A stretch of DNA of 64,000 nt, taken from NCBI GenBank assembly GCA_016931325.1, contig JAFGFC010000110.1:13710-77709 (forward strand), in the 5' to 3' direction. The translations under genes and the position numbers were made by a program. Of this stretch, positions 1 through 48,877 are shown piece after piece. Numbering within the stretch: position 1 is the first letter of the stretch; the number at the start of each line of letters is the position of its first letter. This stretch comes from Spirochaetota bacterium. GTDB taxonomy: Bacteria; Spirochaetota; JAHITG01; JAFGFC01. Under the pieces are notes generated by a model that had not been told where the DNA came from, searched no databases, and was given only the letters and a program-made list of their open reading frames with translations.

Positions 1-1110
1 GCTGCTTCTCAAAGAGGGCAGGGAACGTTTGCCGGCAATGAGTCTTTTAATAAAATTGTACTGAGTGTAATTATATCCTCCCCACCAGGGGGTATATTCC
101 GGATTGAGCCCCCACATGGGATCGATACAGGGGGAATTATCCAGGTCTGTTCCTATCCGGTATCCGTCCATACCCATTTCTGTACCGTAAAAAATAGAAG
201 TAGGCTCATGCCAGGTCAGGGTGAACCCCAAAGCCAGTCTCATCTTCCAGGAATCACCCCCGGCCCGCCTTAATCCTCTGTCCTTATCATGATTATCAAT
301 AAAGGAGACCATAATAGGATTGACCCCATATGTATTCTGGGCATTCTGTATCTCTGACCAGAATGTCCCGGAATCAATGGACTGATAAAAGGCCCATTTA
401 ATGATCCCGCCGGCGCCATACTCTTCCAGCGGGAAATCAAAGCAACCGTCCAGTTCATCCCCGTTCTTTACATAGTCCCCTATTTTCCAGGCTCCGTCAA
501 ATATCTCGCCGAACAGGTACCGGTCAGGAAATTTTTCTTTTAACCGGTTCCTGACATACTTCCAGTATTGATGACCATGGTCCACGGGATTCCCGTCAAA
601 TTTAGCATAATCCAGCCTGAACCCTTTCACTCCCTTGGCAGACCAGTGCGTTAAAGTATCGGAAAAGTACTGCTGTACTTCGGCCATGCCGGTTGTCCAT
701 TCCGGCCAGTCTCCCCAGGGGCTGTTATAGATCCCGGCCCAGTCAGGGTTATTGTCCACAATGGGCCCGCCCCCGATGGCTGTGCCCGGCCAATCAATGA
801 TCAGATCAATACCGTTCTGTTTCAATACTTTAACAAAATTTTTGAACTCTGCTTCCGTACCAAAATACTCATCCACGTTCCACCAGTCATAGGTATTATA
901 ACCGGCCGCTCCCCCGGCCCCGAATTTCATGGGCGGGGCAATGTAGATACAGTTGATATTAAGGCTTCTTAAATAATCCAGATTATCCAGGATCCCCTTA
1001 AAGTCACCACCTTTTCTTTTTGTATCTCCTGTAGGGTCATTGGAAGGATCCCCGTTAAAAAAACGATCCACAAAGATAAAATAGATAATGGAATTCTGGA
1101 CCCAGCCGGC
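1..1110 (-). other. GH13 catalytic (beta/alpha)8 domain portion of the giant ORF
   Basis: Hand translation gives AGWVQNSIIYFIFVDRFFNGDPSND, then GFRLDYAKF (Asp codon 610-612), LFGEIFD (Glu codon 505-507) and FIDNHDKDR (His-Asp codons 286-291). These match GH13 regions I-IV. Confidence 0.85.
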
Positions 1111-32403: not shown

Positions 32404-32483
32404 TTATGTTTTTTTAAAACTTGTACATAGTATTGAAAGAGCTTGACAAGCGTTTTAAAAATAATATTATAAACCTTTCAAAA

Positions 32484-33803
32484 ATGTGGTATTCAGGGCT
32501 TAAAATTAAAACATTTCGAACTGGCGGTGTGCATCCTCATGAATACAAGGGATTGACCGAAGAATGTTCGATCATCAATTTTCCCGTACCACAGAAAGTG
32601 ATCATTCCTTTATCCCAGCATATTGGTAAAACAGCAAAGGCCCTGGTAAAAAAAGGGGATATGGTTTCTGAATATCAGCTCATCGGCCAGAAAGACGGTA
32701 AGATATCGGCTAATGTGCATTCCAGTATCCCTGGAAAGGTTGTTGATGTCGTTATGGCCTGTATTTTGAATTATCAGGTTCTGTCTGTTGTTATCCAACT
32801 GGAAGGTGAGTTTAAAACCGGAAATCTCAAGAAAGATGAGTGGGAGCCCTTGAAAAAAGAAGAGATCCTGAAAAGGATTGAATCAGCCGGGATTGTGGGA
32901 ATGGGGGGAGCCGGGTTTCCGACTGATTTTAAATTATCTCCGCCTCCGGATAAGAAGATAGATACGCTTCTGGTTAACGGGGTAGAATGCGAGCCTTACC
33001 TCACTTCCGATTACAGGCTTATGATGGAAAAGACCGATGAGATCGTGGAAGGGATCAAGATAGTGAAAAAGGTACTGGGTGTTCGAACCGTTTTTTTAGG
33101 GATTGAACTGAATAAGAAAAAGGCCATAAAAAAATTCAAAGACAGGCTTACTTCGGAAAGTAATATCCATGTTGTTCCTCTGAAAGTAAAATATCCTCAG
33201 GGCGGGGAAAAACAGCTGATAAAAGCGATTTTGAAACGGCAGGTTCCCTCCGGCGGATTGCCTTTTGATGTAGGTGTTATCGTCAGCAATATCGCCACGG
33301 TTTATGCTGTTCGTGAAGCGGTTCTCTTTCAGAAACCTCTGACAGAGAGAGTCGTTACAGTCGCAGGGACGATCGTTGAAAAATGCGGGAATTATAAAAT
33401 AAGGGTCGGGACAACGGTCAGTGAGGTGATCAAGGAGGTTGGGATCCATGGCCCTATTGGCAAGGTTATTATGGGAGGCCCTATGATGGGAATCAACGTA
33501 TCAACTGTTGAAGCTCCTGTTATGAAAGGTACTTCAGGCATACTTTTTTTTAGTGAAAAAGAGGCGCGGAGTATAGATTATTCCTTTTATAAACCCTGTA
33601 TCCATTGTTCCAAATGTCTTGAGGCGTGTCCTGTTAATTTAAATCCCAGTATGCTTTCCATCCTGGGTGAGATGGAGAAATGGGAGGATATGAAAGGGTA
33701 TCATCTTCAGGATTGCATCGAGTGCGGATGTTGCAGTTTTGTCTGTCCGTCCAGGCGTCCTATTGTGGGATGGGTAAAGGCCGGAAAAGCTCTTTCGGCT
33801 TAA
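32484..33803 (+). CDS. rnfC: Rnf complex subunit C
   Basis: Start chosen at MWYSGLKIKTFRTGGVHPHEYK; the tracked TTG at 32421 is probably over-extended. GMGGAGFPT. Two 4Fe-4S motifs, CIHCSKCLEACP and CIECGCCSFVCP. Confidence 0.9.
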   Translation: MWYSGLKIKTFRTGGVHPHEYKGLTEECSIINFPVPQKVIIPLSQHIGKTAKALVKKGDMVSEYQLIGQKDGKISANVHSSIPGKVVDVVMACILNYQVLSVVIQLEGEFKTGNLKKDEWEPLKKEEILKRIESAGIVGMGGAGFPTDFKLSPPPDKKIDTLLVNGVECEPYLTSDYRLMMEKTDEIVEGIKIVKKVLGVRTVFLGIELNKKKAIKKFKDRLTSESNIHVVPLKVKYPQGGEKQLIKAILKRQVPSGGLPFDVGVIVSNIATVYAVREAVLFQKPLTERVVTVAGTIVEKCGNYKIRVGTTVSEVIKEVGIHGPIGKVIMGGPMMGINVSTVEAPVMKGTSGILFFSEKEARSIDYSFYKPCIHCSKCLEACPVNLNPSMLSILGEMEKWEDMKGYHLQDCIECGCCSFVCPSRRPIVGWVKAGKALSA

Positions 33804-33811
33804 GGAGAAAT

Positions 33812-34792
33812 ATGTATCGTTTAAGTGTATCACCACATATTCACTCAAAGGCGAGTGTTTCCAGGATCATGTGGACTTTTATAGTGGCCCTGATGCCGGC
33901 TATGGCAGCCTCGATCTGGTTTTTTGGGCCCAGAGCCCTGTATCTTGAAATTATATCTGTGGCCACAGCGGTCATAACGGAATTATTAACAGGATTGTTA
34001 TTAAAAAAAAGGATCACCCTCTCAGATGGGTCTGCCGTTATCACAGGGCTTTTAGTGGCTTTTAATATGCCTGTTTCTGTTCCTTATTATGTTCCGATTG
34101 TTGGTTCATTTTTTGGAATTGCGATTGTCAAACAGTTATTTGGCGGTCTGGGATATAATATTTTCAATCCGGCACTGGCCGCCAGGGTCTTTGTTATGTT
34201 TGCCTGGTTGCCGGAAATGACCACCTGGAATGCTCCTCTGACAACCAGCGGTTTTTCAAAATTGGCCGGGTTTAATTTTTCCATCGATACAATAACAACT
34301 GCCACACCCCTGGCCATTGCCAAGATGAAAGGTATGGCTGGATTGTTAACCGAGTTCGGATCAAAAATGGGCATGTATAAAGATCTGTTTTTAGGGAAAT
34401 GCCCGGGATGTATTGGTGAAACATCAGCCCTGGCTCTTCTTTTAGGGGCCGGATTATTGTTATTAACAAAGATCATAAGATGGCCGATCCCTTTATCCTA
34501 TCTGGCGACAGTAGTCTTGATCTGCCTTCTATCCGGAAATGACCCCATATTTCATCTGTTATCAGGCGGACTAATATTAGGGGCTTTTTTTATGGCCACT
34601 GATTATGTAACCAGTCCGATGACCCCAAAAGGTATGATCCTCTTTGGTGTGGGGTGTGGACTTGTTACTATGGTTTTAAGGTTAAAAGGAGGTCTGCCGG
34701 AAGGGGTCTCGTTCTCGATTCTTTTTATGAATGCCCTGGCTCCTCTCATTGACCGATATTTTAAAAATCCCGTTCTAGGGGTAAAAACATGA
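33812..34792 (+). CDS. rnfD: Rnf complex subunit D
   Basis: MYRLSVSPHIHSKASVSRIMWTFIVALMPA is a typical RnfD/NqrB start. It is a polytopic membrane protein with ITTATPLA at the expected flavinylation region. The tracked ORF start (33680) overlaps rnfC and is rejected. Confidence 0.9.
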   Translation: MYRLSVSPHIHSKASVSRIMWTFIVALMPAMAASIWFFGPRALYLEIISVATAVITELLTGLLLKKRITLSDGSAVITGLLVAFNMPVSVPYYVPIVGSFFGIAIVKQLFGGLGYNIFNPALAARVFVMFAWLPEMTTWNAPLTTSGFSKLAGFNFSIDTITTATPLAIAKMKGMAGLLTEFGSKMGMYKDLFLGKCPGCIGETSALALLLGAGLLLLTKIIRWPIPLSYLATVVLICLLSGNDPIFHLLSGGLILGAFFMATDYVTSPMTPKGMILFGVGCGLVTMVLRLKGGLPEGVSFSILFMNALAPLIDRYFKNPVLGVKT

Positions 34793-35391
34793 AGATACAG
34801 GAATTAAGCAAAGGTTTATTTAAAGAGAACCCTATTCTTGTTCTCATGCTTGGTTTATGTCCGACTCTGGCTGTTTCTACAAAAGCCATATATGGCATCG
34901 GTATGGGCGCCGCTGTTATTTTTGTATTAACCTGTTCCAATGTGATCATTTCTCTTATCAAGGATTTTATTCCTGACAAAATAAGGATTCCCAGTTATAT
35001 CGTGGTGATCGCCACTTTTGTAACAATCGTGGATTATGTTATGAAAGCTTACACACCGGAGCTTCATAAATCCCTGGGCATTTTTATCCCTCTCATTGTC
35101 GTCAACTGTATCATACTCGGCAGAGCAGAGGCCTTTGCTGCGAAAAAAAATGTGCTTGACTCTTTTTTCGATGGTATTGGTATGGGATTGGGATTTACCC
35201 TGGCCCTTACCCTGATCGCTGTTATAAGGGAGATTCTTGGAGCCGGAACTATCACCTTGAAGCTTTTAGGTTATGGCTGGATCGTTGAAATACCTCATTT
35301 AAATCCCATGATTGTTATGATCCTGCCACCGGGAGCTTTTATCACGATCGGTTTAATACTGGGATTTTCTAATATTCTGAAAAAGCGATAA
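34789..35391 (+). CDS. rnfE: Rnf complex subunit E
   Basis: NPILVLMLGLCPTLAVST...LGIFIPLIVVNCIILGRAEAFA. ATGA overlap with rnfD. Confidence 0.9.
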   Translation: MKIQELSKGLFKENPILVLMLGLCPTLAVSTKAIYGIGMGAAVIFVLTCSNVIISLIKDFIPDKIRIPSYIVVIATFVTIVDYVMKAYTPELHKSLGIFIPLIVVNCIILGRAEAFAAKKNVLDSFFDGIGMGLGFTLALTLIAVIREILGAGTITLKLLGYGWIVEIPHLNPMIVMILPPGAFITIGLILGFSNILKKR

Positions 35392-35437
35392 GAATTAAAA
35401 GAATACAAGGAGTTTTGAAAAGGACTTTGGAGTTTTC

Positions 35438-36019
35438 ATGGAGCATTATTTGATTATCATTGTCAGCGCGGCTTTTATCAATAATTTTGTTCTCTCCCGT
35501 TTCCTTGGACTATGTCCTTTTATCGGGGTATCGAAAAGGCTGGACTCGGCGCTGGGTATGGGAATGGCGGTTATCTTTGTTTTAACCTTTGCTTCTGTGA
35601 TCACCTATATGATCCACCGTTTCCTCCTTCTTCCTTATCATTTGGAATTTTTAAAGACCATTTCTTTTATTTTGGTTATTGCCACGCTGGTGCAGTTCGT
35701 TGAAATGGTGATCCATAAGACGGCACCGACCCTTTACGAGTCTTTAGGTATTTATTTGCCTCTCATTACCACCAATTGTGCTGTACTGGGAGCGGCTCTT
35801 TTGAATATTAATGAGAATTATAACCTTCTGGAAAGCGCTCTTAATGGCTTTGGGGCCGGTGTAGGGTTCACTGTCGCTTTAATACTGATGGCCAGTATAA
35901 GGGAAAAACTCGAACTGGCCAGAGTTCCCCGGAGTTTCAAGGGGGCTCCTATCACCTTTATTATTGCCGGGATCCTTTCCTTAATATTTTTATGTTTTAA
36001 AGGAATTATTGCGGAGTAA
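35438..36019 (+). CDS. rnfA: Rnf complex subunit A
   Basis: AAFINNFVLSRFLGLCPFIGVS...LGIYLPLITTNCAVLGAAL. Confidence 0.9.
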   Translation: MEHYLIIIVSAAFINNFVLSRFLGLCPFIGVSKRLDSALGMGMAVIFVLTFASVITYMIHRFLLLPYHLEFLKTISFILVIATLVQFVEMVIHKTAPTLYESLGIYLPLITTNCAVLGAALLNINENYNLLESALNGFGAGVGFTVALILMASIREKLELARVPRSFKGAPITFIIAGILSLIFLCFKGIIAE

Positions 36020-36085
36020 AATATCAAGTAATATTTTAAAGCGCAGAGTGAGTACAAAGTGCAAAGTAATTTTTCGGAGTAATAA

Positions 36086-36916
36086 ATGACATTATTGATC
36101 ATTATATCAGCCGCCAGTATCGGAGGATTGGGTCTTTTCTTTGGTATTATTTTGGGAATAGCGGCGAAGTTTTTTAAAACTGACATGGATTCAAGGATCA
36201 AAGATATCGAAGAGATCCTGCCGGGCATAAACTGCGGAGCCTGCGGTTTCCCAGGATGCTCGGGTTATGCCAAAGCCCTGGTGAAACAGGATGTGGATAT
36301 ATCACTGTGTATTCCGGGAGCCAGCCAGGTACAGGCCAGGATCGCTGCGATCATGGGCAAAGAGACAAAAGATAAAGAGAGTCTGATCGCCAAGGTAAGG
36401 TGTGTAGGGGATAAAGATACCGTTGCCAGAACAGGGTATTATCTGGGTGTAAAAAGCTGTTCGCTGGCACAGATCACTGTCGGTGGTGATAAAGCCTGTG
36501 CTTATGGATGCCTGGGTTATGGGGATTGTGCGGCGGTCTGTCCTTTTGATGCTATTCACATGGGTAAGGACAAACTTCCTCATGTTGACGAAAAGAAATG
36601 CACAGGCTGTGGGCTTTGCGTCAAAGCCTGTCCAAGAAATATTATAGAGATGGTCAATAAAAGAGATTATTTCTTTATTAAATGTGTTTCAAAGGATTTT
36701 GGCCCTGCCGTTTCTAAAGTATGCAAAAAAGGATGCATTGGTTGTGGCATCTGCGCTCGTGTGAACAATAATGAGGGGATCAGAATGGAGAATAATCTTC
36801 CGGTTGTTGATCATAAAGAATTTAAAGGGGATGTAACCGGGGCGCAAAAGTGTCCCACCAGGGTGATAGAGTTTTTAAAAGAGAAGTGGGAGGAAAAAAA
36901 GCATGAAAAAGATTAA
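36086..36916 (+). CDS. rnfB: Rnf complex subunit B (N-terminal anchor plus polyferredoxin)
   Basis: TM helix, [13 protein letters not shown], then several CxxCxxCxxxCP motifs ([22 protein letters not shown]). Confidence 0.88.
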
Positions 36917-37397
36917 AGGGAAGGTATGGAAATTCGGTGAAAACATCAATACCGATGAGATTATCCCGGCCCGCTATTTAAACACAGATGACCCGAAGGA
37001 ACTCGCCAGCCATTGTATGGAGGATGCTGATCCGGAATTCATAAAAAAATACAGCCAGGGGGATATTATAGTGGCCGGTAAAAATTTTGGTTCCGGGTCC
37101 TCCCGCGAGCATGCTCCTTTAAGTATAAAAGCCGCTGGTATTGCTTCTGTTGTGGCTGACTCCTTTGCCAGAATTTTTTACCGCAACGCGATCAATATAG
37201 GGCTCCCTATTTTATCCATAGCAGGGATATCAGAAAAGGTGGACCAGGGAGATGAGTTGGAGATCGATTTTGCTAATGGAGAAGTGAAAAATATAACCAA
37301 AAACCAAACTTATAAAGCTGATCCCTTTCCTGAATTTATGCAACAGATCATTAATTCCGGCGGTTTGATGAGCTATATTATGCAGGAGGGTCAATAG
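36903..37397 (+). CDS. leuD: Aconitase-family swivel-domain small subunit (3-isopropylmalate / homoaconitate dehydratase small subunit type)
   Basis: [21 protein letters not shown]...[44 protein letters not shown]. Overlaps the rnfB end by 14 nt. No large subunit is present in the window. Confidence 0.8.
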
Positions 37398-38095
37398 GAA
37401 ACGAGCATGTCTCCCAGATCGCTGTTTTTGATCAAATTAACCCTTAGAGATCTTGTATCTCCGGCATTGATCTTTATCTTTTTGTTTCTTTTTTGAAGAT
37501 ACTCGCTTATATCTTTGAAATAATTGACCTGTTCAAGGCCAAAAAGTTTAATCCCATTAATGTTAAAAATGACCTTGGAAATTTCAGAGGTTAATTTTTT
37601 TTCGACTTCCTGGACGATCAGGGAATTGTCTGTTTTTTCATAATCTCCGGTCAGGGCTACAGTTAAGATATTCTCTGTTATTTTCATGTTAATATTCAAA
37701 TTGGAATTGATCTGATGTTCGGATTTGAAATTTTGATACATCTGATCGATACGCTTGACCAGTTCATCAACATCAAAGGGCTTGGCCAGATAATCTTTTA
37801 TGCCCAGTTTGAGCAGTTTAAGCACGATCTCTTTATTGGTATGAGCTGATATGATCAGGATGGGTATATTTTTCGTCTCCGGTGAATCTTTTAGTCTTAC
37901 ACAGGTCTGGTAACCGTCCAGGCGGGGTAACATGATATCCATAATGATAACATCAGGATGTTCCTGTTTGGTTTTGGACAGCGCTGAATAACCATTATCT
38001 GCTTTTAATACAATGAATTTTCCTTCCAGGGTCTCTTCCAGCAGATCCAGAACATCAGGATCATCATCGACTACCAGTATTTTCTTTTCTTCCAT
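37391..38095 (-). CDS. Response regulator receiver domain fused to a STAS-like C-terminal domain
   Basis: The REC domain shows [29 protein letters not shown] and YLAKPFD. The C-terminus [21 protein letters not shown]...[20 protein letters not shown]...KIKINAGD follows an anti-sigma-antagonist (STAS) pattern. Confidence 0.8.
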
Positions 38096-38369
38096 AATTA
38101 GCCCCCTGATCAGAGATTCGTTCCTTAAATAAATATTACTGCAACTTTTATACCACTTTTATATATTTCGTAATAATTAAAAAATGTAAAAATGATAATT
38201 ACAGCTCATATAATAGGGCAAAAAGGGAAAACCCGGCAAAATGCTGCGTTAATAAAAAAGGATGAGTAGTTTTTAAGCAGCGGGAGGTTAATTAATATAC
38301 AATGGGATTTCCTGTTTAAAAGGATCGGATTTATCAAAAAGGGGTAAGGCATCCTTAATGTGATAGTAG

Positions 38370-38397
38370 TTGACCCTATGTTAAATTATATTATATT
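38370..38397 (+). promoter_or_regulatory. Candidate sigma-70 promoter for the J-domain operon
   Basis: TTGACC (38370-75), a 16-nt spacer, then TATATT (38392-97), about 40 nt before ATG 38438. Confidence 0.3.
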
Positions 38398-38437
38398 AAT
38401 TTTAGACCGTTCACTTAATTGATCCAATGTAAAATAT

Positions 38438-39109
38438 ATGGCTATAAAAAATTTCTATGATTTATTAAACCTTGACTTTCAGGCTTCCACAGAGGCGGTC
38501 AAGCGACATTACAGGATACTGGTAAAACGGTATCATCCGGATTCCGGTTGTGAAGAGGCTTCGGAAGAGATGTTCAGACTGATAACACAGGCCTATAAGA
38601 TATTAACGGATGAAAAAAAACGACTGAAATATAATGAAAAGCTTTTCAGGATAAAAGTAAAAAAACCCCGGGTGCAGATCCCCAGGCCCAAGATCAAGGT
38701 CATCTATTCTCGTTCACTGGGTGTCCTGGCCAAACGGGGATTTTTTATTACCCGATTAAGTTCAAAAGCCCGAAGGAAAAGAGACATTAAATATGATATA
38801 GAAGTCTTTATTGATTATTATCAGGCACAGAAAGGGGGTGTCATCGATATTTTTGTTCCCACAAAGTATCCTTGCCCGTACTGTCAGGGCAGTGATCACT
38901 ATTGCCGTTTGTGTGAAGGGAAGAGCTATATTATACGTTCGCAACCGATCAAAGTACTGGTCCCGGCTTCACCGGCTTCGGGTGAGATCTTTGAGATCGA
39001 TCTGGGAAAGATAAAACAAAAAAATTGTGCCGTTATCCGGGCTCAGAAATTACGGATCAAGATCATCCTGTCCCATCAAAAGACCACCTTCAAACAATTG
39101 CCGGGATGA
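38438..39109 (+). CDS. J-domain protein with a single degenerate DnaJ-type zinc finger
   Basis: NFYDLLNLDFQASTEAVKRHYRILVKRYHPDSG carries the HPD motif. No G/F region. CPYCQGSDHYCRLCEGKSY is followed by a DnaJ CTD-like IKVLVPASPASGEIFEI. Confidence 0.85.
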   Translation: MAIKNFYDLLNLDFQASTEAVKRHYRILVKRYHPDSGCEEASEEMFRLITQAYKILTDEKKRLKYNEKLFRIKVKKPRVQIPRPKIKVIYSRSLGVLAKRGFFITRLSSKARRKRDIKYDIEVFIDYYQAQKGGVIDIFVPTKYPCPYCQGSDHYCRLCEGKSYIIRSQPIKVLVPASPASGEIFEIDLGKIKQKNCAVIRAQKLRIKIILSHQKTTFKQLPG

Positions 39110-39116
39110 ATATATA

Positions 39117-41933
39117 ATGAATTTTTACAAAGGTAAATACTTTATTTTCCTCCGTTCCTCATCCTCTCCTGCTTTCATCAAGTTCAAAGGCAAAGACGAA
39201 CAATATTTTTCTGCCAATACGTTTCTGGGTGAAAAGATCTTATGCTATGCTATTCAGGACATCAAAATAGGGAAGGAAGAGATCCTCTATGAGTCGTCTG
39301 TTCCTTTTCCTGATTTTGAAGTAGCCGGTGTATTAACCCATTATCGAATCGACCAGAAGATAAATTATATGATCTTTAATCCCAGTCAGAGATCCTTTGA
39401 TATCAAGATCATTGTTACAGATCAGGCAGGATATATTCGATTTAATAAAACTCATATATTCTATAACCATACAGGATGGATCAATGAGAGTTTTTTCCTG
39501 GTACGGGAAGGGGATTACAGAATGCTTTTTTATCTGGATGGACAATTCATTTTTTCAAAGAACCTTTCTGTTGAAAAGAAAAAAAATACACCTGTGATCG
39601 ATATCATTCATTCCGATGGAGAGAAGATTCAATTTAAATTATTCAGCGATAAGGACGAGATTGTCTCTGATCTGCAGGTCAAGGAGGAATCGATTGTCAA
39701 CGGGAAGAAGATCTGTCGAACCATTGAAGAGAAGATCCCCACAAAACGCAGTATGCTGTATGTTCCTGTAAAAAAGGTATTCGAAGACATAGACCGGCTT
39801 GGTATGATTTCCAGGCTGGCTTTGGACGGGAAGTTCAACCCTCAAGGTGTATTCAAGATCATCTCGGCTATGAAAGAGATGAATGAAATGGAGGAAATAA
39901 AATTCATTAAAAATCTTTTCACCAGCGATCCTGATATAGCCTACGCTTTGACAGAAGAGATCTTTGACTATGAATTATTATTTAATATCCCTGTCCCCCA
40001 GGCTCGGGAGATATTAGACAACATGGACGATGATCTTGTCCTTTTGGCTTTCAAAGGAGCTCTGGAAAAGAGGAAAAGATTTTTTCAGGATAATATTTCG
40101 CAGAAGAGATGGGACCTGCTCAAGCCCCAGATCAATGATAAGAAGATCCTGTCGGAAAGAGAATATCATATTGTAAAACAAAAGATAGGAACTCATGTAC
40201 GCAGTTTTTTCCAGAAAAGATACGGGTGTCTTATCGAGATTCAGCATCCGGCAGAGAAAAGAGCCAAGATCCAGTCGATCTATAACAAAGTCATATATGA
40301 TGAAACGCGGAAACTCTATACCTATTTTTTACCGCCGGTTGATTCAGCGGGTTATTATACAACCACGTTCGATCTTGAAGACGATCAGCAGCTGGCTATC
40401 ATCGGGAAGCGGGATAAAAAAGAGGAAATGATCTTTTATGAATACTGTCACTATGAAACGGAAGCGTTCTGGGAGATCGTTACGGTGGATGAGAAATTCA
40501 TACACTTTCATTTCTCACATGACCTCTCAGATCTGCAGGTCATTGTGCTTGACGAAAAAGGCAGACTGGCCTGTCTGTTTGAGACAGAAAGGATTTATCA
40601 GGACGAGATCATCAGAGTAAAATATCATTTCCTTAACCGATGCCGGGTGTTGATCGGAGGGGTCTGTAAAAAAGAAAAAAGGCTTGTAGAGGCTGATGTC
40701 TTTCTTTTTATTTTTCCCAATAGAAAAAAAACCTTTTTTATTCCGGAATATTCTATCCCCGGGGAAAAATTGCCCCTGAGCGATCTGAGCGCAAAGAGAG
40801 GAAGGCTTTTTGTTTCGACAACAGATATCGGTATTTTCTACAATGATCTTTATCATAATTTTATTGAATTGAGCCGGGCCAGAGATGTAACCATACCGCT
40901 TGATCAGAAGGGGGGAGAAAAAATATGCTTCATCGAAGATCAGGAAAAGGATTTTGTTCCCAATATGTTGCACAATACTGTTGAAAAGATACAGATCTTT
41001 TTTCATGAGGGAGGGGAACTCGATATCGCCTCGAGTGTGGTTTATCTTTTTCATCCGGTCGTCGCTTATTTTATATCTTATAAAAATAACAACGAAGGCA
41101 AAATCATTATCTATAATCCTTCCCAAAAGCTTTGTGAATATGAGATCAAGATCGATACAGATCTTGTTTCAGAAAAAGGGACTTTCAAAGCTGAACGGTT
41201 TACAACAGAAGTCAAATTTCAAAATTATATTTTTATTAGGATCAAGAATATCTACGGACGGTTCCAGTACGGGCTGGAGCGACAAAAAGGGGGTCAGGAT
41301 GAAAGCGTGATCGACATTGTTAAAAAACAGGGAAGGGAAGAACTGCTTGAACTGGTAAAGAAATGGCTTTCTCTTGAAAAAGAATATAATCTTTTACATT
41401 TGTTGTTGGCTATCAAGATAGCCTTTCTTCAGAATGATGAGACAGCTTTGAGATTTCTTCTTCATAACCTTGATGATCAATTTGAAAAGGATGGGCTTTT
41501 ACGACTGAAGGTGTCACATGAATATAACAGGAATGATACAGCTCTGGCTTTGGAATATTTGGGGATATTCATGAAGGGAAAAAACGAAGATATGTATAAT
41601 TTGACCATGAACGCGCTGGAGCATGTCAGAAAGGATGATATAAGATCACCTTCTTTGTGGATATACGGGAAACGATTTTCTGAAGAATATGGACGGAGAA
41701 TAAGATATATAAAAGAAAAATTAAAGGGCCCAATGGCCCTTTCGGCCGAACATAGCCTGAGCCTGTATCACAGTATCCTGTTTACGAAATGGAAAAAGGA
41801 AAAAACAAAAATAGAGCTGAAGCCCGTCGTGTTTGCCAGGGATTTTTATTTAGAACGGGCACACATGGTACTGGACATCTATCTGCTTGGTTCACCTTTC
41901 CGATCATTACAAAAAGCAAAGGGATTCATCTAA
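39117..41933 (+). CDS. 938-aa cytoplasmic protein of unknown function with an internal FliG C-terminal-like segment
   Basis: ATG 39117 lies 7 nt after the J-protein stop; the tracked start 39027 overlaps that gene. Residues encoded around 39850-40225 (FIKNLFTSDPDIAYALTEEIFDYELLFNIPVPQAREILDNMDDDLVLLAFKGALEKRKRFFQDNISQKRWDLL) align by eye with the E. coli FliG MFVFENL...LLIALKGAEPPLREKFLRNMSQRAADIL region. No signal peptide or TM helix. Confidence 0.7.
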   Translation: MNFYKGKYFIFLRSSSSPAFIKFKGKDEQYFSANTFLGEKILCYAIQDIKIGKEEILYESSVPFPDFEVAGVLTHYRIDQKINYMIFNPSQRSFDIKIIVTDQAGYIRFNKTHIFYNHTGWINESFFLVREGDYRMLFYLDGQFIFSKNLSVEKKKNTPVIDIIHSDGEKIQFKLFSDKDEIVSDLQVKEESIVNGKKICRTIEEKIPTKRSMLYVPVKKVFEDIDRLGMISRLALDGKFNPQGVFKIISAMKEMNEMEEIKFIKNLFTSDPDIAYALTEEIFDYELLFNIPVPQAREILDNMDDDLVLLAFKGALEKRKRFFQDNISQKRWDLLKPQINDKKILSEREYHIVKQKIGTHVRSFFQKRYGCLIEIQHPAEKRAKIQSIYNKVIYDETRKLYTYFLPPVDSAGYYTTTFDLEDDQQLAIIGKRDKKEEMIFYEYCHYETEAFWEIVTVDEKFIHFHFSHDLSDLQVIVLDEKGRLACLFETERIYQDEIIRVKYHFLNRCRVLIGGVCKKEKRLVEADVFLFIFPNRKKTFFIPEYSIPGEKLPLSDLSAKRGRLFVSTTDIGIFYNDLYHNFIELSRARDVTIPLDQKGGEKICFIEDQEKDFVPNMLHNTVEKIQIFFHEGGELDIASSVVYLFHPVVAYFISYKNNNEGKIIIYNPSQKLCEYEIKIDTDLVSEKGTFKAERFTTEVKFQNYIFIRIKNIYGRFQYGLERQKGGQDESVIDIVKKQGREELLELVKKWLSLEKEYNLLHLLLAIKIAFLQNDETALRFLLHNLDDQFEKDGLLRLKVSHEYNRNDTALALEYLGIFMKGKNEDMYNLTMNALEHVRKDDIRSPSLWIYGKRFSEEYGRRIRYIKEKLKGPMALSAEHSLSLYHSILFTKWKKEKTKIELKPVVFARDFYLERAHMVLDIYLLGSPFRSLQKAKGFI

Positions 41934-42832
41934 TGTTATCACTGTCATTAAATTGGCTCAAGAAAGAACCGATTGTGAGAGATGACATCAGGATGGTGAA
42001 GGAGATGGGATTCAACAGGGTGGAGTTGCACTGGTATTATCCACAAGAATACCTTGCGGCATTAAAACGTGACCTTGAAAATGAGAATGTCAGGACCCCG
42101 TCAATACACAATCCTCTTTCCTTCAGGGGATGTGATGTCAATGTTGATCTGGCCCATAAAGACAGGAGAGTCAGAGAAGCATCAATAAAAGTCACAAAGA
42201 AGACCATTGAGGCAGCCGTCTTTCTCGGCGCCGAGTATGTGGTCCTTCACGTGGGGAACATTGATTTTTCAGATTTTGAAGAAGATAAAGATCTTGTTTT
42301 CGAGCTGTACAGAAAAGAGAACAGGATCACACCTCCACTTGAGAAACTCAGAACAAAATTTATACAGTACAGGCAGGATCATGCTCCTGTTCATTTAAAG
42401 TTTTCCAAACAGAGTCTGGAGGAGCTTTTGACTTTTGCCGGCTCCCGTGGGATAAAACTGGGAATTGAATCACGGTATTATCCCCATGAGATCCCATCCC
42501 TTGAAGAGATAAAAGAGATAATAGAATATTTTAACGACCCCTTTATTGGTTTCTGGCATGATGTGGGGCATACAACAGTTCAGGAGCGCCTGGGCTTTTA
42601 TACAACGGGTGAACATCTTGCCACCTTGCATCCTTATATTTTTGGATTTCATCTTCATGATATAAAAGAAAATCTGCGGGATCATCTGGCCCCCGGACAG
42701 GGAGGATTCGATTTTTATACCCTTAAAGAGTATGTAAAAAAGGGCAGGCCTCTGGTTCTGGAAGTTTTTCATGCTACGAAAAAAGAGGTCCTTGATGGAC
42801 GTATTCTTCTGGAAAAAATATTGGGTCTTTAA
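41933..42832 (+). CDS. Xylose-isomerase-like TIM-barrel protein (sugar phosphate isomerase/epimerase / AP-endonuclease-2 fold)
   Basis: TAATG overlap with the 938-aa gene. GFNRVELHW, AEYVVLHVG, KLGIESRY, FWHDVGH and FHLHD are metal-ligand-type motifs of this fold. Confidence 0.78.
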   Translation: MLSLSLNWLKKEPIVRDDIRMVKEMGFNRVELHWYYPQEYLAALKRDLENENVRTPSIHNPLSFRGCDVNVDLAHKDRRVREASIKVTKKTIEAAVFLGAEYVVLHVGNIDFSDFEEDKDLVFELYRKENRITPPLEKLRTKFIQYRQDHAPVHLKFSKQSLEELLTFAGSRGIKLGIESRYYPHEIPSLEEIKEIIEYFNDPFIGFWHDVGHTTVQERLGFYTTGEHLATLHPYIFGFHLHDIKENLRDHLAPGQGGFDFYTLKEYVKKGRPLVLEVFHATKKEVLDGRILLEKILGL

Positions 42833-43017
42833 AACCAGAGACAGGTAAGTACAAAGTCCGAAATCTTTCATAGCACGCGGGTCGAATCCCAGCCCTCCTG
42901 ACGAATTCGACCACAACGTTAGAGGTTTATAGCAATACAGCGGTCAAATCTTTACCATCCATGGATTTGACCCGATGTACTTTTTGTACATAGAATTTCG
43001 AACCTGTTTAAAACCCC

Positions 43018-43045
43018 TTGACATTTTTAAAAAAGGAGTTATCTT
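43018..43045 (+). promoter_or_regulatory. Candidate promoter for tRNA-Gly (and possibly tig)
   Basis: TTGACA (43018-23), a 16-nt spacer, then TATCTT (43040-45), 16 nt before the tRNA 5' end. Confidence 0.35.
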
Positions 43046-43061
43046 ATAGACGTATGAATCT

Positions 43062-43134
43062 GCGGGAGTAGCTCAGTTGGTAGAGCGTCACCTTGCCAAG
43101 GTGAATGCCGCGGGTTCAAGTCCCGTCTCCCGCT
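43062..43134 (+). tRNA. tRNA-Gly (GCC)
   Basis: GCGGGAGTAGCTCAGTTGGTAGAGCGTCACCTTGCCAAGGTGAATGCCGCGGGTTCAAGTCCCGTCTCCCGCT. The acceptor GCGGGAG pairs with CTCCCGC. The anticodon loop is TTGCCAA. No CCA is encoded. Confidence 0.93.
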
Positions 43135-43151
43135 CATAGGATTTTTTTACT

Positions 43152-44492
43152 ATGAAAGTTGACGCTCAAGTAGTGAATAAAGAAGCTACAAAAGCGGTTT
43201 TATCCGTGGAAGTAGATGAAAAAAGTGTGACTGATCAATTTGCACAAGTTTCAAGAATTTTTCAGGAAAAATCCAATATTAAAGGATTTCGACCGGGAAA
43301 AGCTCCCCTTGATATAATAAAATCCAAATTTAAAGACCAGATCAACCATAATGTCCTTGAGAATTTATTGACACCGGCTATTCAGGAATCTCTCTCATCC
43401 GCTCAATTAAAGCTATTTGCGTCTCCCAGGGTTCGAGATATTCAGATATCAGAAGGAAGCCCTTTGAAATTCAATCTGGAGATCGAATTACAGCCTGAAG
43501 TTGAATTGTGCAAGTACAAGGATTTAACTTTTCACAGGGACGAGTACAAGGTCGATCAAAAAGATATAGACACAGAACTGGAAAAATTGAGGAATCATTA
43601 TGCCGATTATATTACAAAGGACAATAATATTGTAGAAGAAAGTGATATTGTAACCTTGAAAATGGAAACTTTCCATAATGGAGAGATCGTCAAGGAGTAT
43701 ACAACAGAAAATTATAAGACAGAGATGGATAAAACCAAGATCATGGATAAGATCTTTAATGCTGTCATACGGTCCCGTGTCGGTGATATAAAGGAAGTTG
43801 AAGTGGAATATCCCCAGAATTTTACGGATCAGATGCTGGCCGGAAAGAAAATTCAATACAAGATTACCATTAAAGAATCTAAAAAAAAACAGCTGCCTGA
43901 ACTGGATGACGAATTTGCCAAAGATGTGGGTGAATATAAAAAGATAGATGAACTGACACAGGCTATAGAGCATCAGCTGGTTGATGCCGGAAAAGCAAGG
44001 GCCGAGCAGAATCTGGAAAATTCGATCATAGAAAAGGTCATACAGGACTCTAAATTTAAAATTCCTGAAAGCATGATCGATGCCCAGTATAACTATCTTT
44101 ATAATGACTGGCAGAGGTCTTTGCAATCTCGAGGATATAATGTAAATGACATGATACAGAAAAAAGTGATCAACCCGGAAAAGATACAGGCAGAGATGCG
44201 AAAGTCAGCCTTAAAGGATTTAAAGGTATATCTGGCTTTAAAGAACATCAGGGAAAAAGAGAATATCCAGGTGGCTGAAGATGAGATCGATGATGAAATA
44301 AAGAAATATGCCCAAAAATACAATAAAAAATTTGAAGAATACAAGAAACAATTTAACGAGCAGGCCATAGAAACGATAAAACAACAGATAGGAAATATAA
44401 AGGCCATTAATTTTTTAAAAGAGAATAACAAGATCAAAAAAGGCAAAAAGTTAAAATTTGAGCAGATCATGAAAACGGAGGTGTCATCTTGA
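43152..44492 (+). CDS. tig: Trigger factor
   Basis: The N-terminal ribosome-binding region contains GFRPGKAP. The length and the tig-clpP-clpX-lon synteny also fit. Confidence 0.93.
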
Positions 44493-45091
44493 ACCTTGTT
44501 CCCATCGTTGTAGAACAGACAGCCAGAGGTGAGCGAGCCTTTGATATTTATTCCAGGCTTTTAAAAGAGCGGATCATTTTTATTTCAACCGCTATAGATG
44601 AAGATTTAGCCAATCTTATTGTTGCTCAAATGCTTTTTCTGGAGGCAGAAGATCCGGAAAAGGATATTTTTCTGTATGTCAATACGGCCGGTGGCATGGT
44701 AACAGCCGGATTGGCTATTTATGATACAATACAGTATATTAAACCCGATGTATCGACCATCTGTATCGGTCAGGCTTCCTCCATGGGAGCCCTTCTGTTG
44801 GCTGCCGGTACCAAAGGCAAGAGATTTTCTCTACCCAACTCCAGGATCATGATTCATCAGCCTTTGGGTGGAGTTCAGGGGCAGGCCACAGATATTGATA
44901 TTCAAGCTAAGGAAATTTTAAGAATGCGCGATTTACTTAATAAGATACTGTCCAATCATACAGGACAGAAGATAGAAAGGGTAGCCAAGGATACAGACAG
45001 GGATTTTTTTATGTCGCCTGAAGAGGCCAAGGAATATGGGATCATTGATCAGGTCATTCATAAAAAAATAGTTAAAAGAGCCAAGGAGTAA
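44489..45091 (+). CDS. clpP: ATP-dependent Clp protease proteolytic subunit
   Basis: TTG start overlaps the tig TGA, and GGAGGTG lies 6 nt upstream. [33 protein letters not shown] and MIHQP. Confidence 0.96.
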
Positions 45092-45095
45092 CGCT

Positions 45096-46376
45096 ATGCC
45101 TAAATCCACAAAGCCTACTGAAGAAGTAAAGTGTTCCTTTTGTGGCAAGAAAGAAAGCGAAGAGCTGTACAAGATCATACAGGGACCCGGTGTATTTATA
45201 TGCAGTGAGTGTGTTGAGCTGGCTAAACAGATTGTGGATGAAAATTACAAATTTCATGAAAAAGAAGCCATTCACCGTTTGCCGAAACCGGCAGAGATAA
45301 AAAAATATCTGGATGAATATATTGTGGGACAGGATTATGCTAAAAAGGTCATCTCCGTAGCCGTGTACAATCATTATAAACGGATACAGTTCAATACAGC
45401 CAAACGCCAGAGCAACACAAAAGACAATATCGATATTGAAAAGAGTAACATTCTTTTGATCGGACCGACGGGCAGTGGTAAAACCCTTATTGCCAAAACA
45501 CTGGCTAAAATATTGAATGTCCCTTTTGCCATAGCCGATGCCACCTCTCTCACGGAAGCGGGTTATGTGGGAGAAGATGTGGAGAATATTCTTCTAAGGC
45601 TTATTCAGAATTCCGAAGATGATGTATCAAAAGCAGAGATGGGTATTATCTATATTGATGAGATCGACAAGATCGCCAGAAAAACAGACAGTCCCTCCAT
45701 TACCCGGGATGTGTCCGGTGAGGGTGTTCAGCAGGCTTTACTCAAGATTTTAGAGGGGACTCTGGCCAATGTCCCTCCTCAAGGCGGAAGGAAACATCCT
45801 CATCAGGAATTTATAAAGATCAATACGGATAATATTCTTTTTATCCTGGGAGGAGCGTTTATTGGGCTGGATGACATCATTATGAAAAGGATCGCTAACT
45901 CATCCATGGGATTCGGGGCTGATATTAAATCAAGAAAAGATAAAGACAAAAGTATCGGTACTATACTCAGGAATGCCAACCCTGATGATCTCGTCAAGTA
46001 TGGTTTTATCCCGGAGTTTGTCGGGCGAATTCCCGTTGTCTCTGTTTGTGATGCTTTAACGGAAGAAGATTTTATAAAGATATTGACCAAGCCGAAAAAC
46101 TCACTAGTCAAACAGTATCAAAAGATATTCGAGATAGAAGGAGTGAAATTAACCTTTTCTGACAAGGCTTTGGACACAGTAGCCCATCTGGCCATCAAGA
46201 GGCAGACAGGAGCCAGAGGCCTTCGTTCTATATTAGAGCAGACCATGCTGGATATTATGTATGAACTTCCCTCTATTAAGAATATTTCCGAGTGTATTAT
46301 TACAGAAAAGACGATATTAAAGAAAGAAAAACCAAAATTAAACTTTTTTCAAGCCATAGAGGCTAAAGGCGCATGA
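45096..46376 (+). CDS. clpX: ATP-dependent Clp protease ATP-binding subunit ClpX
   Basis: Zinc-binding CSFCGK...[23 protein letters not shown] and [10 protein letters not shown]. Confidence 0.97.
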
Positions 46377-48877
46377 AGATCATTGGGACCTCAAAAGACA
46401 AAAATAACAAGACGAAAGATTTTTTAGATGAACCTGACAAGATATATCCCGTTATCCCTCTTAAGAATCTTGTTGTTTTTCCTTCCATGGTAACTCCCTT
46501 TATTGTGGGGAGGAAATTTTCCATCACCGCTATTGAGACTGCCATGAAAATGGATAAAAAAATAGTTCTGGTGATGCAGAAGCGCGCCAATGTGCAGAGT
46601 CCTTCAGCCAAAGATCTTCATAAAGTAGGAACGATCTGTGAGATCCTGCAGATTCTGAAAATCCCGGATGGGACCATCAAGGTCCTTGTTGAAGGTTTGA
46701 AAAGAGCGGAAATAAAAAAGGTCTTTACCCAGGGAGAGGCCTTCACGGCCAAGGTGTTCATCCCCCCGGTCAGGATTGATAAAAATCAGGAGATGGAGAT
46801 CGAAGCCCTGGTGCGGAATGTGGTTCAGCTCTTTGACAAGTATTCCAAGTTGAATAAAAAAATACCTCCTGAAACGATCGTGACCACAATGAATACAGAT
46901 TCGGCTGAAGATATGATCGATATCATAGCCAGCCAGCTGGGGTCCAAACCTTCATCCAAGCAAAAGTTATTATCTATTTTTGATCTTACCGGCCGCTTGA
47001 AGGAATTAACGCAATTATTACAGAAAGAGATTGAAATACTCAACGTAGAAAAGGATGTTCAGGAGAAAGTCCGTGATAATATGCAAAAAACCCAGAGAGA
47101 ATATTACCTGCAGGAACAATTAAAGGTGATCAAAAAAGAGCTGGGTGAAAAAGGGGAATACCTTGACGACATCACCGAGCTGAAAAAAGCGATTAAAAAA
47201 GCCAAGTTGCCGAAAGAGCCATTGGAGAAATGCAAAAAAGAGATCGCCAGGCTGGAAAAGATGCCCCCGATGTCAGCTGAAGCTTCTGTCATACGGACTT
47301 ATATTGACTGGATCCTGGATCTGCCCTGGCATTATAAAACAAAGGATCAGAACGATATCAAAAAGGCCGCTAAAATACTGGATGAAGATCATTATGGATT
47401 AAAGAAAGTCAAAGAGAGGATTCTGGAATATATGGCGGTCCGTCAGATCGCTGATAAATTAAAGGGGCAGATACTCTGTTTTGTGGGCCCTCCCGGGGTG
47501 GGAAAGACATCACTGGCTCGTTCTATTGCCCGGTGTTTGAATCGTAATTTTGTCAGGATATCTCTTGGCGGCGTAAGGGACGAAGCTGAGATAAGAGGCC
47601 ATAGAAGGACTTATGTCGGGGCCTTGCCCGGCCGTATCGTACAGGGAATGAAGAAGGCCAAATCGAAAAATCCTGTCTTTTTAATGGATGAAATAGATAA
47701 AATGAGCACAGATTTCAGAGGTGACCCTTCAGCCGCCCTGTTAGAGGTGCTGGATCCCGAACAGAACAATTCTTTTTCCGATCATTATTTAGAACTGGCT
47801 TATGATCTTTCGGATGTCTTTTTTATTACCACGGCTAATTCGCCCTATAATATTCCCAGACCCCTTCTGGACAGGATGGAGACGATCGAGCTGGCCGGTT
47901 ATACAGAATATGAAAAGCTGCATATTGCCAGCCAGTTCCTGATACCGAAACAGTTAAAAGAGCATGGGTTAAAAGAGGATAACATCAGGTTCCAGAGTAA
48001 TATCATACTGGAGATCATTCGCTATTATACACGTGAGGCAGGAGTAAGGGAGCTCGAGCGGACGATAGCTACCATCTGTCGCAAAGTAGCAAAAAGGATC
48101 GTGGAAGAGAACAAACAGGTCAATATACGTATCAACAGCCATCTGATCCATAAATATCTCGGTGTAAAAAAATATCGTTACGGAGCGGCTGAACAGAAAA
48201 ATGAGATAGGTGTGGCTACCGGTCTGGCCTGGACCGAAGCCGGGGGTGACATTCTGTCAATTGAAGTTTCTGTAGTGCCGGGAACGGGCAAGCTGATCCT
48301 TACCGGCAAACTCGGTGAGATCATGCAGGAATCAGCTCAGGCGGCTTTATCCTATGCCCGCTCAAAGACAAAACAGTATCACCTTCTGGAAGGGTTTTAT
48401 AAAAAATATGACATCCATATCCATGTCCCGGAAGGGGCTGTGCCGAAAGATGGTCCCTCAGCCGGTATCACGATCGCCACGGCGCTCATTTCCGCCTTAG
48501 GGAAGATCCCGGTGAGAAAAGATGTGGCCATGACAGGCGAAATAACTCTGAGGGGAAAGATCCTTCCCATCGGCGGTCTGAAGGAAAAGGTCCTTTCCGC
48601 TTCCCGCTCCAATATCAATCATGTCATTTTACCCTTTGAGAATAAAAAGGATTTTGAAGAGATCCCCAAGGATATCCAGAAAAGGATGAAATTTTATTTT
48701 GTGAAACACATGGAGCAGGTATTAAAAGTATCCCTTTCAGAACCAAAATTTATCAAATCGGACAAAGGGGAGGTTATCAGTTACCAGAAGAAAAAACCCC
48801 CGATGAAGAAGAAAAAAAGAACAAGATCTGTTAAAATAAAAGACTGGAAGAATAATGAGATCCAACCTGAAGCTTAG
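46373..48877 (+). CDS. lon: Lon protease (LonA)
   Basis: LON N-domain ([22 protein letters not shown]), [17 protein letters not shown] and [10 protein letters not shown] catalytic Ser. There is a Lys-rich C-terminal tail of about 45 aa. Confidence 0.96.

Follow-up and report, generated by a model that had tools for sequence, protein, structure and literature searches.

A predicted macroglobulin-like protein with an embedded FliG C-terminal-type module, encoded beside a truncated J-protein in uncultured spirochetes

We analyzed a three-gene locus in a 64,000-nucleotide (nt) stretch of DNA from an uncultured Spirochaetota bacterium (GenBank assembly GCA_016931325.1, contig JAFGFC010000110.1, positions 13,710 to 77,709 of the forward strand). 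This whole stretch is referred to as the window, and coordinates given without a contig or locus name are positions in it. On the plus strand, a gene for a J-domain protein (38438-39109) is followed by genes for a large protein (39117-41933), the main subject of this study, and for a xylose-isomerase-like triosephosphate isomerase (TIM)-barrel protein (41933-42832), with translated lengths of 223, 938 and 299 amino acids (aa), respectively. The J gene ends in TGA and is separated by a 7-nt gap from the ATG of the large gene at 39117, whose TAA stop (41931-41933) overlaps the ATG of the TIM-barrel gene (41933-41935) in a TAATG junction. An initial annotation, made from the sequence letters without database searches, had described three tightly linked genes with these two junctions, and it proved exact in both coordinates and overlaps. 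Longer open reading frames (ORFs) would start at a GTG at 39027 for the large gene and at an ATG at 41789 for the TIM-barrel gene. We favor the shorter starts, 39117 and 41933, because the N terminus of the large protein follows a pattern common to its family in the family alignment (M-x-F-x-K-G-K-Y-F) and because the relatives of the TIM-barrel protein, at ~305 aa, cover 92–99% of the 299-aa form.

Within the large protein, Pfam identified FliG_C at residues 266-363 (37.8 bits against a curated cut-off of 23.3, E = 2.5e-9, profile positions 2-99 of 108), and the family scored above its cut-off in all six long relatives scanned (34.9–43.3 bits). The initial annotation had aligned this segment (~39850-40225) by eye with the torque-helix domain of FliG. 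A phmmer search against the PDB recovered the same alignment with Salmonella FliG (E = 8e-5), and structural superposition confirmed the fold. Residues 243-369 of the predicted structure (39843-40223, plus strand), which correspond to ARM_C and the six-helix torque domain, superpose on FliG chain 8wo5_B5 with Z 12.6 and a root-mean-square deviation (r.m.s.d.) of 2.6 Å over 126 residues at 21% identity (VIA-align). The FliG structures 4fhr_B, 3hjl and 1lkv superpose similarly, with identities to solved FliGs of 20–22%, and a search independent of Foldseek returned 1qc7_B (Z 11.9, r.m.s.d. 1.9, 88 residues). Overall, the FliG fold matches span Z 11.9–12.6 and r.m.s.d. 1.9–3.0. At the hinge position, the motif is I-F-D-Y in this protein and I-F-D-F in the majority of its relatives.

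The likeness is confined to this C-terminal module. Alignments with FliG begin at a model residue of at least 226, equivalent to FliG residue 194 onward, residues 1-215 are all-β, and Pfam found neither FliG_N nor FliG_M in the large protein at E up to 1. The full-length model TIGR00207 scored 23.1 bits by hmmscan and 25.2 in a six-frame search, too low for full FliG membership at its cut-off of 226.7. Similarity to FliG_C or the helical repeats of MgtE_N had been suggested at the outset; the FliG_C part stands, above cut-off, whereas MgtE_N gave no match at E up to 1.

The overall anatomy of the 938-aa protein was studied in an AlphaFold2 model built with a 10-row alignment (mean predicted local distance difference test (pLDDT) score 79.5, predicted template modeling score 0.78). 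The model orders the chain as β (residues 1-215), helical (218-369), β (371-535), β (564-732) and helical (737-925). By model secondary structure, residues 1-215 (39117-39761, plus strand) form N-terminal β-sandwich domains, among which residues 65-155 adopt a filamin/macroglobulin-type immunoglobulin-like fold (single-domain matches at Z 9–12, r.m.s.d. 1.8–2.8, 85–91 residues). The FliG-type module is followed by residues 371-732 (40227-41312, plus strand), modeled as the β-sandwich domains 371-535 and 564-732, the second of which is missing in shorter family members. The C-terminal helical domain (residues 737-925; 41325-41891, plus strand) has a pLDDT of ~75–89 in the full model and of only 52 when folded alone. 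Beyond FliG_C, no Pfam or NCBIfam family exceeded its curated cut-off in the large protein, and a Pfam scan at E up to 1 added a single sub-threshold unrelated family. The ESM Atlas provided no usable feature match for it and a poor model (pLDDT 0.38). The sequence holds no transmembrane-grade hydrophobic stretch (maximum 19-residue hydropathy 1.58, at residue 635 and not N-terminal), no hydrophobic leader and no lipoprotein signal, features that predict a soluble, cytoplasmic multidomain protein. The earlier description of a soluble protein without obvious catalytic motifs thus holds, given the absence of any enzyme-family match and of transmembrane-grade stretches.

Outside the FliG-type module, structure comparison pointed to macroglobulins. 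In a Foldseek search of the PDB, the top matches were alpha-2-macroglobulins, complement C3/C5, the thioester-containing protein (TEP) TEP1 and CD109, with E values of 8e-16 to 1e-10 at TM-scores of only 0.18–0.35. The β domains superpose on the bacterial alpha-2-macroglobulin 4rtd (Z 13.0, r.m.s.d. 4.0, 258 residues) and on 4u48 (Z 12.9, r.m.s.d. 4.0, 304 residues), at ~12% identity to macroglobulins, and the Foldseek-independent search repeated this answer (4u48_A, Z 12.9). Some macroglobulin and TEP alignments extend into the helical domain (4u4j, 63..927; 2pn5, 66..885). The 938-aa sequence contains no CxEQ thioester motif, and no Pfam macroglobulin family matched at E up to 1. We regard the modeled protein as macroglobulin-like in build, a likeness at fold level only, and do not count it as a member of the family. 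Taken together, the model shows a predicted architecture in which a FliG-type C-terminal module is inserted in an alpha-2-macroglobulin-like β-sandwich chain that is followed by a helical domain.

Because bacterial alpha-2-macroglobulins and complement/TEP proteins were the structures that matched the whole chain best, a cytoplasmic macroglobulin-like protease trap or proteostasis factor was considered. The genes downstream of the locus might seem to fit this function: a tRNA-Gly(GCC) gene (43062-43135, plus strand) precedes a plus-strand row of tig, clpP, clpX and lon (43152-48877). We find this explanation scarcely credible, however, because the thioester motif, a leader or lipoprotein signal and a Pfam macroglobulin match are all missing and the TM-scores are low. 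Moreover, the tRNA gene and promoter-like sites part the operon from tig, and the tig-clpP-clpX-lon row is an ordinary proteostasis cluster that is not kept beside the large gene in relatives.

The first gene of the locus (38438-39109, plus strand) encodes a protein with a J domain at residues 5-66 (Pfam DnaJ, PF00226, 63.9 bits against a cut-off of 27.8), a basic linker, one zinc site and a short β-rich C-terminal part. The HPD motif lies at residues 33-35. The linker is rich in lysine and arginine where the glycine/phenylalanine-rich (G/F) region would be, and the whole protein is basic (46 K+R against 21 D+E). Two CxxCxG motifs (C146/C149 and C156/C159) make up one zinc site, and each of 21 family members has all four cysteines. 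The linker carries an invariant YSRSLGxLAKRGFF motif at residues 90-103. These features agree with the initial annotation, which had listed an HPD motif, no G/F region and a single CxxCxG..CxxCxG finger. The type I DnaJ model TIGR02349 gave 81.5 bits (cut-off 377.2) in an alignment of residues 5-167 with profile positions 1-174 of 354, NF010894 matched residues 2-185, and the dnaJ locus of the same genome, one of four J-domain loci in all, is 28% identical over query residues 4-169 (tblastn). DnaJ-like sequence accordingly extends to residue 167-185, that is, through the first zinc site. Because it then ends, we interpret the J-protein, from its sequence, as a truncated DnaJ derivative with one zinc center and a truncated client-binding part.

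Other searches with the J-protein reached the J domain or close relatives. When the J family was used as a profile against the PDB, the best 60 of 73 matches aligned with the J domain alone, and the NCBIfam TopJ models likewise match only the J domain. In a set of 5.8 billion sequences, the J family comprised 19 proteins that are 56–83% identical over the C-terminal part. A metagenome scan with the J-family alignment kept 80 loci, mostly of ordinary DnaJ, with long matches at most 30% identical and no orthologue among them. PADLOC returned zero matches for the J-protein, the large protein and the TIM-barrel protein.

The genome that contains the locus (G000; 95% complete, 204 contigs) belongs to a flagellated sediment spirochete. 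The initial annotation had noted that the window lacks flagellar genes, in agreement with a Pfam scan of the window ORFs, and had placed the organism in a non-flagellated lineage of the Fibrobacteres–Chlorobi–Bacteroidetes type. That placement is wrong: flagellar genes, for which it had suggested checking the genome, are present elsewhere in G000. They include a canonical FliG (157 bits on FliG_C, 489.4 bits on TIGR00207), FliM, FlhA, FliF, a MotA gene adjoining those for FliM and FlhA on contig C190, and six Flagellin_N ORFs, five of them 209–302 aa in length. Flagellar genes occur in every genome tested of the class, and an ORF of FliG size was found in 39 of 41 genomes sampled across the phylum.

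The two exceptions are genomes of the class, G001 and G006, in which no canonical FliG was found although both have FlhA and five to seven flagellin matches. Replacement of the missing FliG by the long protein was considered and set aside, as contigs break after fliF: they end within ~1.2 kb of the fliF match in G000 (C170), G001 (C215) and G006 (C22; L147-L149), and fliG of G000 opens another contig (start of C45). The absence is most likely due to assemblies breaking repeatedly between fliF and fliG, given that the contigs stop after fliF and that the fliG of G000 starts a separate contig. In G006, the FliG middle domain additionally occurs as separate, stand-alone proteins: one is a 113-aa ORF (47.8 bits; L146:4774-5115, minus strand) and a second piece reaches 36.1 bits (second locus: L145:6097-6345 and L145:5440-6054, both minus strand). 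One of these ORFs adjoins a 204-aa FliM-like gene (51 bits), at a site remote from the contig with fliF. A tblastn search revealed no counterpart of the G006 proteins in G000.

The family of the large protein is rare. An exhaustive phmmer search of 1.84 billion representatives yielded 20 proteins at E ≤ 1e-3 and nine at E ≤ 1e-30, the query included, a word-index homologue search returned the query alone (one match among 6449 candidates), and a genome-contig search with a 4-row alignment found one locus, on a G001 contig. The long form is present in all six genomes of the order and all seven of the class at 25–40% identity; in the 41-genome phylum sample, it was found within the class only. 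Residues 4-523 have homologues in a short form of 480–540 aa (hhalign: probability 99.8, E 3.6e-29, 499 columns), which occurs at full length in three of the 41 genomes (G012, G026 and G039), which represent two further spirochete families. The long form is, as judged from this alignment, the short-form core extended by residues 564-925, since the short form matches residues 4-523. The genes of the short cousins have the same neighbors at all three loci: a HEAT-repeat gene in head-to-head orientation and, behind it, a gene with a cyclic nucleotide monophosphate (cNMP)-binding domain (L021:3131-6692 in G012, L022:3986-7927 in G039, L023:160-4009 in G026). For the FliG_C-core family, this arrangement is a second conserved context, and it may point to control by cyclic nucleotides.

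Orthologues of the J-protein are found in six of the seven class genomes, with 43–83% identity in the C-terminal part (74% in G001, 57% in G004, 51% in G002 and 50% in G005; 180 bits in G006). In G000, G001 and G004, the J gene lies immediately 5′ of the large gene, and the arrangement in G005, where contig C270 ends with the J gene and contig C45 starts with the large gene, both on the plus strand, is compatible with adjacency. As a lineage-restricted co-chaperone, encoded in linkage with the large protein in several relatives, the protein bears out the earlier notion of a specialized J-protein.

A third gene recurs in this neighborhood and encodes a coiled-coil protein of 838–921 aa. In G002, G004 and G005, this gene is found just 5′ of the J gene, and in G003 it is found 5′ of the large gene with one 95-aa ORF between them. 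The C terminus of this protein matches DUF6115 (cut-off 27) with 27.4–29.5 bits in G003 and G004 and 25.9 bits in G002, and gave no match in G005. In G000, the coiled-coil copy stands alone on contig C26 (C26:7435-10062; L042), with DUF6115 scores of 28.1 bits by hmmscan and 35.5 in the six-frame search. DUF6115-like ends were found in 35 of the 41 phylum genomes on ORFs of ~170–3700 aa, mostly longer than 800 aa; the papers that a literature search listed contain no mention of DUF6115. The coiled-coil end also resembles DUF2802 at 24.6 bits in G000 and 22.9 bits in G004, both under the cut-off of 33.5 for that family. The recurrent unit of the class is thus composed of the coiled-coil, J and large-protein genes, variously split. 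In G005, a gene for a receiver plus HATPase_c_2 protein lies 5′ of the coiled-coil gene (L040:2-742), and a PilZ-domain gene (L017:4654-5265, minus strand) lies ~2.3 kb beyond the 3′ end of the large gene, past one gene for an M23 peptidase/HEAT protein and one for a NUDIX protein.

The TIM-barrel gene (41933-42832, plus strand) is not part of this unit. Its product was correctly recognized in the initial annotation as xylose-isomerase-like (PF01261 at 96.8 bits, with a cut-off of 31.1; residues 20-282 align with profile positions 2-233 of 249). Among the specific NCBIfam equivalogs, none reached its cut-off; the best, IolO, scored 37.9 bits where 300 are required. A three-part Hsp70-recruiting system, in which this enzyme is a partner of the J-protein and the scaffold, had been envisaged, and the TAATG overlap does couple the TIM-barrel gene to the large gene here. 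The overlap is seen in this genome only, however, and the expected co-conservation failed: relatives occur in none of five related genomes searched (E ≤ 1e-3; completeness 78–96%). The genes 3′ of the large gene vary among G002, G003 and G004, and the G001 contig stops 463 nt past the large gene with no ORF of at least 90 aa called there. The nearest relatives, named sugar phosphate isomerase/epimerase, are at most 37% identical and carry Omnitrophota and Deltaproteobacteria labels. Because of this absence from relatives, the differing downstream genes and the foreign phylum labels, we assign the TIM-barrel gene to a passenger specific to this genome and outside the system, and a functional triad is highly improbable.

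For the remaining genes, we tentatively propose that the large protein may be a scaffold that is associated with the motor or the pole and assembled with the help of DnaK, as its sequence and model suggest. J domains recruit DnaK/Hsp70, and the J-protein would bring DnaK to the scaffold, or to the complex that the scaffold joins, for assembly or remodeling. The FliG_C module of the scaffold would make a FliG_C-type contact, with the FliG middle domain, FliM or the MotA stator, and the scaffold would assist or regulate the flagellar motor, at the motor itself or where it is assembled at the pole. In relatives, the cluster would add the long coiled-coil protein with its DUF6115 C-terminal domain. 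Delivery of DnaK is suggested by the known function of J domains, by the 7-nt spacing and by an adjacency that is kept in G004 at 26% identity of the large protein. We infer a motor-type contact more weakly, by analogy, from the FliG_C identity of the module, the flagellated hosts, the weak DUF2802 link of the coiled-coil end and the precedent of the J-domain protein SflA, discussed below. A prediction of the 223-aa J-protein in complex with the large protein up to residue 775, leaving out the last 163 residues, scored 0.00, which speaks neither for nor against their association. In a more specific version, the protein would present a stand-alone FliG_C on a macroglobulin-like ring, dock onto the C-ring (ARM_C to FliG middle domain) or the stators and be loaded or removed by DnaK via the J-protein, and so switch, brake or differentiate the motors at the two cell ends; we consider this quite a long shot.

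Several observations weigh against the scaffold proposal, the first group of which concerns the link between the two proteins. No J orthologue was found in G003, a genome of 95% completeness, and the J and large genes reside on separate contigs in G002 and G006. The C-terminal part of the J-protein has distant homologues in 22 of the 41 genomes, 15 of which lack the long protein; because these 15 have J-family members, the J-protein need not be dedicated to the large protein. Furthermore, as the seven genomes are related, their shared gene order does not amount to seven independent observations. All this would be expected if the genes were unrelated neighbors, the J-protein being a general spirochete co-chaperone of DnaK and the adjacency an order inherited in a narrow clade. 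We rate such a coincidence as unlikely, since the adjacency outlasts divergence of the large protein to the level seen in G004, the narrow gap here suggests co-transcription, and across G002–G005 the J gene stays within a three-gene cluster that is rearranged but not dispersed.

The second group concerns the motor. Of the FliG residues K264, R281, D288, D289 and R297 (Salmonella/E. coli numbering, counted on chain 8umd_B), which we take to be stator-interface residues, the charges of K264 and R281 are kept in the large protein as K313 and K330. None is kept at the other three positions, where D288 corresponds to P337, D289 to Q338 and R297 to S346. The D288/D289 positions are acidic in none of nine family members, and the genome's own FliG retains E-D and R at the equivalents of D288/D289/R297. 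With the acidic pair lost and the R297 position not basic, a canonical FliG–MotA charge interface appears unlikely from the alignment. This loss, together with the absence of FliG_N and FliG_M, establishes that the large protein is not a FliG. G000 encodes just two MotA/ExbB homologues and hence no spare stator. In none of the loci examined do the J, large or coiled-coil genes lie beside a flagellar operon, and the HEAT/cNMP neighbors of the short cousins are not motility genes.

These points would suit a non-flagellar scaffold, in which the FliG_C-type module is a general interaction domain and the protein organizes another cytoplasmic or polar structure with the coiled-coil protein, the J-protein and DnaK being assembly factors. 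The MgtE N-domain, related to FliG_C, is itself a protein-interaction domain. The phylum-wide occurrence of DUF6115-like coiled-coil proteins and the constant HEAT/cNMP context of the short cousins would fit as well. We nevertheless judge a non-flagellar scaffold somewhat doubtful: sequence and fold match FliG_C itself and not MgtE_N, both FliG_C subdomains and the hinge motif position are retained, and all genomes with the large protein are flagellated.

Around the locus, few further signals were detected. A promoter-like site (TTGACC-16 nt-TATATT; 38370-38397, plus strand) lies ~40 nt 5′ of the J gene; it emerged from a consensus scan with 10 of 12 hexamer positions and is a pattern match only. 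The surrounding AT-rich intergenic region contains 20 such sites, compared to 13.6 ± 3.9 in shuffles. With a length of 342 nt, it parts the J operon from a divergent gene for a 234-aa response regulator (37391-38095, minus strand; receiver domain 6-116). Further 5′, an rnf-type operon (32421-37397) comprises RnfC-like, RnfD-like, two Rnf-Nqr-like and RnfB-like genes followed by an aconitase-C-domain gene and represents ordinary anaerobe energy metabolism. An Rfam scan of 37000-44000 found nothing besides one tRNA.

Flagellar torque is generated on the rotor surface that FliG_C provides, and this domain, to our knowledge, has seldom been seen as a mobile module in proteins other than FliG and its close paralogues. 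The large protein carries it within a 938-aa chain of predicted macroglobulin-like build and is kept in every genome of one uncultured spirochete class, in a family known only from uncultured organisms. The architecture is built of known parts and is undescribed as a combination; the accessible portions of the literature contained no description of a large FliG_C-containing protein or of a FliG-linked J-protein in spirochetes. If the module still makes motor-type contacts, the protein would represent a new class of motor accessory, and its partner would be an example in bacteria of a J-protein devoted to motility machinery. The phylum concerned is one in which the question of how the two polar motor sets are controlled asymmetrically is still open. 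If the module makes no motor contacts, the FliG_C fold would have been recruited for other cytoplasmic assemblies.

Among known systems, FliG itself shares with residues 243-369 the ARM_C and six-helix bundle, the hinge and the equivalents of K264 and R281. It differs in its length of ~340 aa compared to 938 and in having FliG_N and FliG_M, and the module of the large protein is internal and flanked by β-sandwich domains. E. coli ECAM, Salmonella A2M and the complement/TEP proteins have in common with the modeled protein a macroglobulin-type β-sandwich chain with an inserted or appended helical domain. They are periplasmic or secreted, in contrast to the predicted cytoplasmic location here, where the thioester and a Pfam match are also missing. 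Type I DnaJ (TIGR02349) resembles the J-protein in its J domain with HPD and in sequence through the first zinc site. Here, by contrast, the chain ends at residue 223 with no G/F region, two instead of four CxxCxG motifs and neither the second C-terminal domain nor the dimerization end, and its score lies below that for full type I membership. TopJ of Mycoplasma, reportedly a specialized J-protein linked to the motility organelle, is far longer at ~800 aa.

Three described proteins connect to motility more directly. SflA of Vibrio, like the J-protein in our proposal, is a J-domain protein tied to motility and is reported to repress flagellar formation (PMC7226244); it differs in being a membrane protein with a periplasmic tetratricopeptide repeat part. 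For FipA, the likeness is the weak DUF2802 match of the coiled-coil neighbor's end, DUF2802 being the domain by which FipA binds FlhF (PMC11620751). FipA is a 163-aa membrane protein of gamma-proteobacteria, compared to coiled coils of 838–921 aa here, and its homologues are reported to be absent from spirochetes (PMC11620751), so that this connection is a lead only. FliG1 of Borrelia burgdorferi, described in a review as a second FliG paralogue that localizes asymmetrically and is dispensable for flagellar synthesis (PMC7225975), offers the parallel of an additional FliG-related protein beside the essential FliG in a spirochete. By that description, FliG1 is treated as a FliG homologue, which sets it apart from the large protein, a chain made up mostly of unrelated β-sandwich and helical domains in which the C-terminal module alone is shared.

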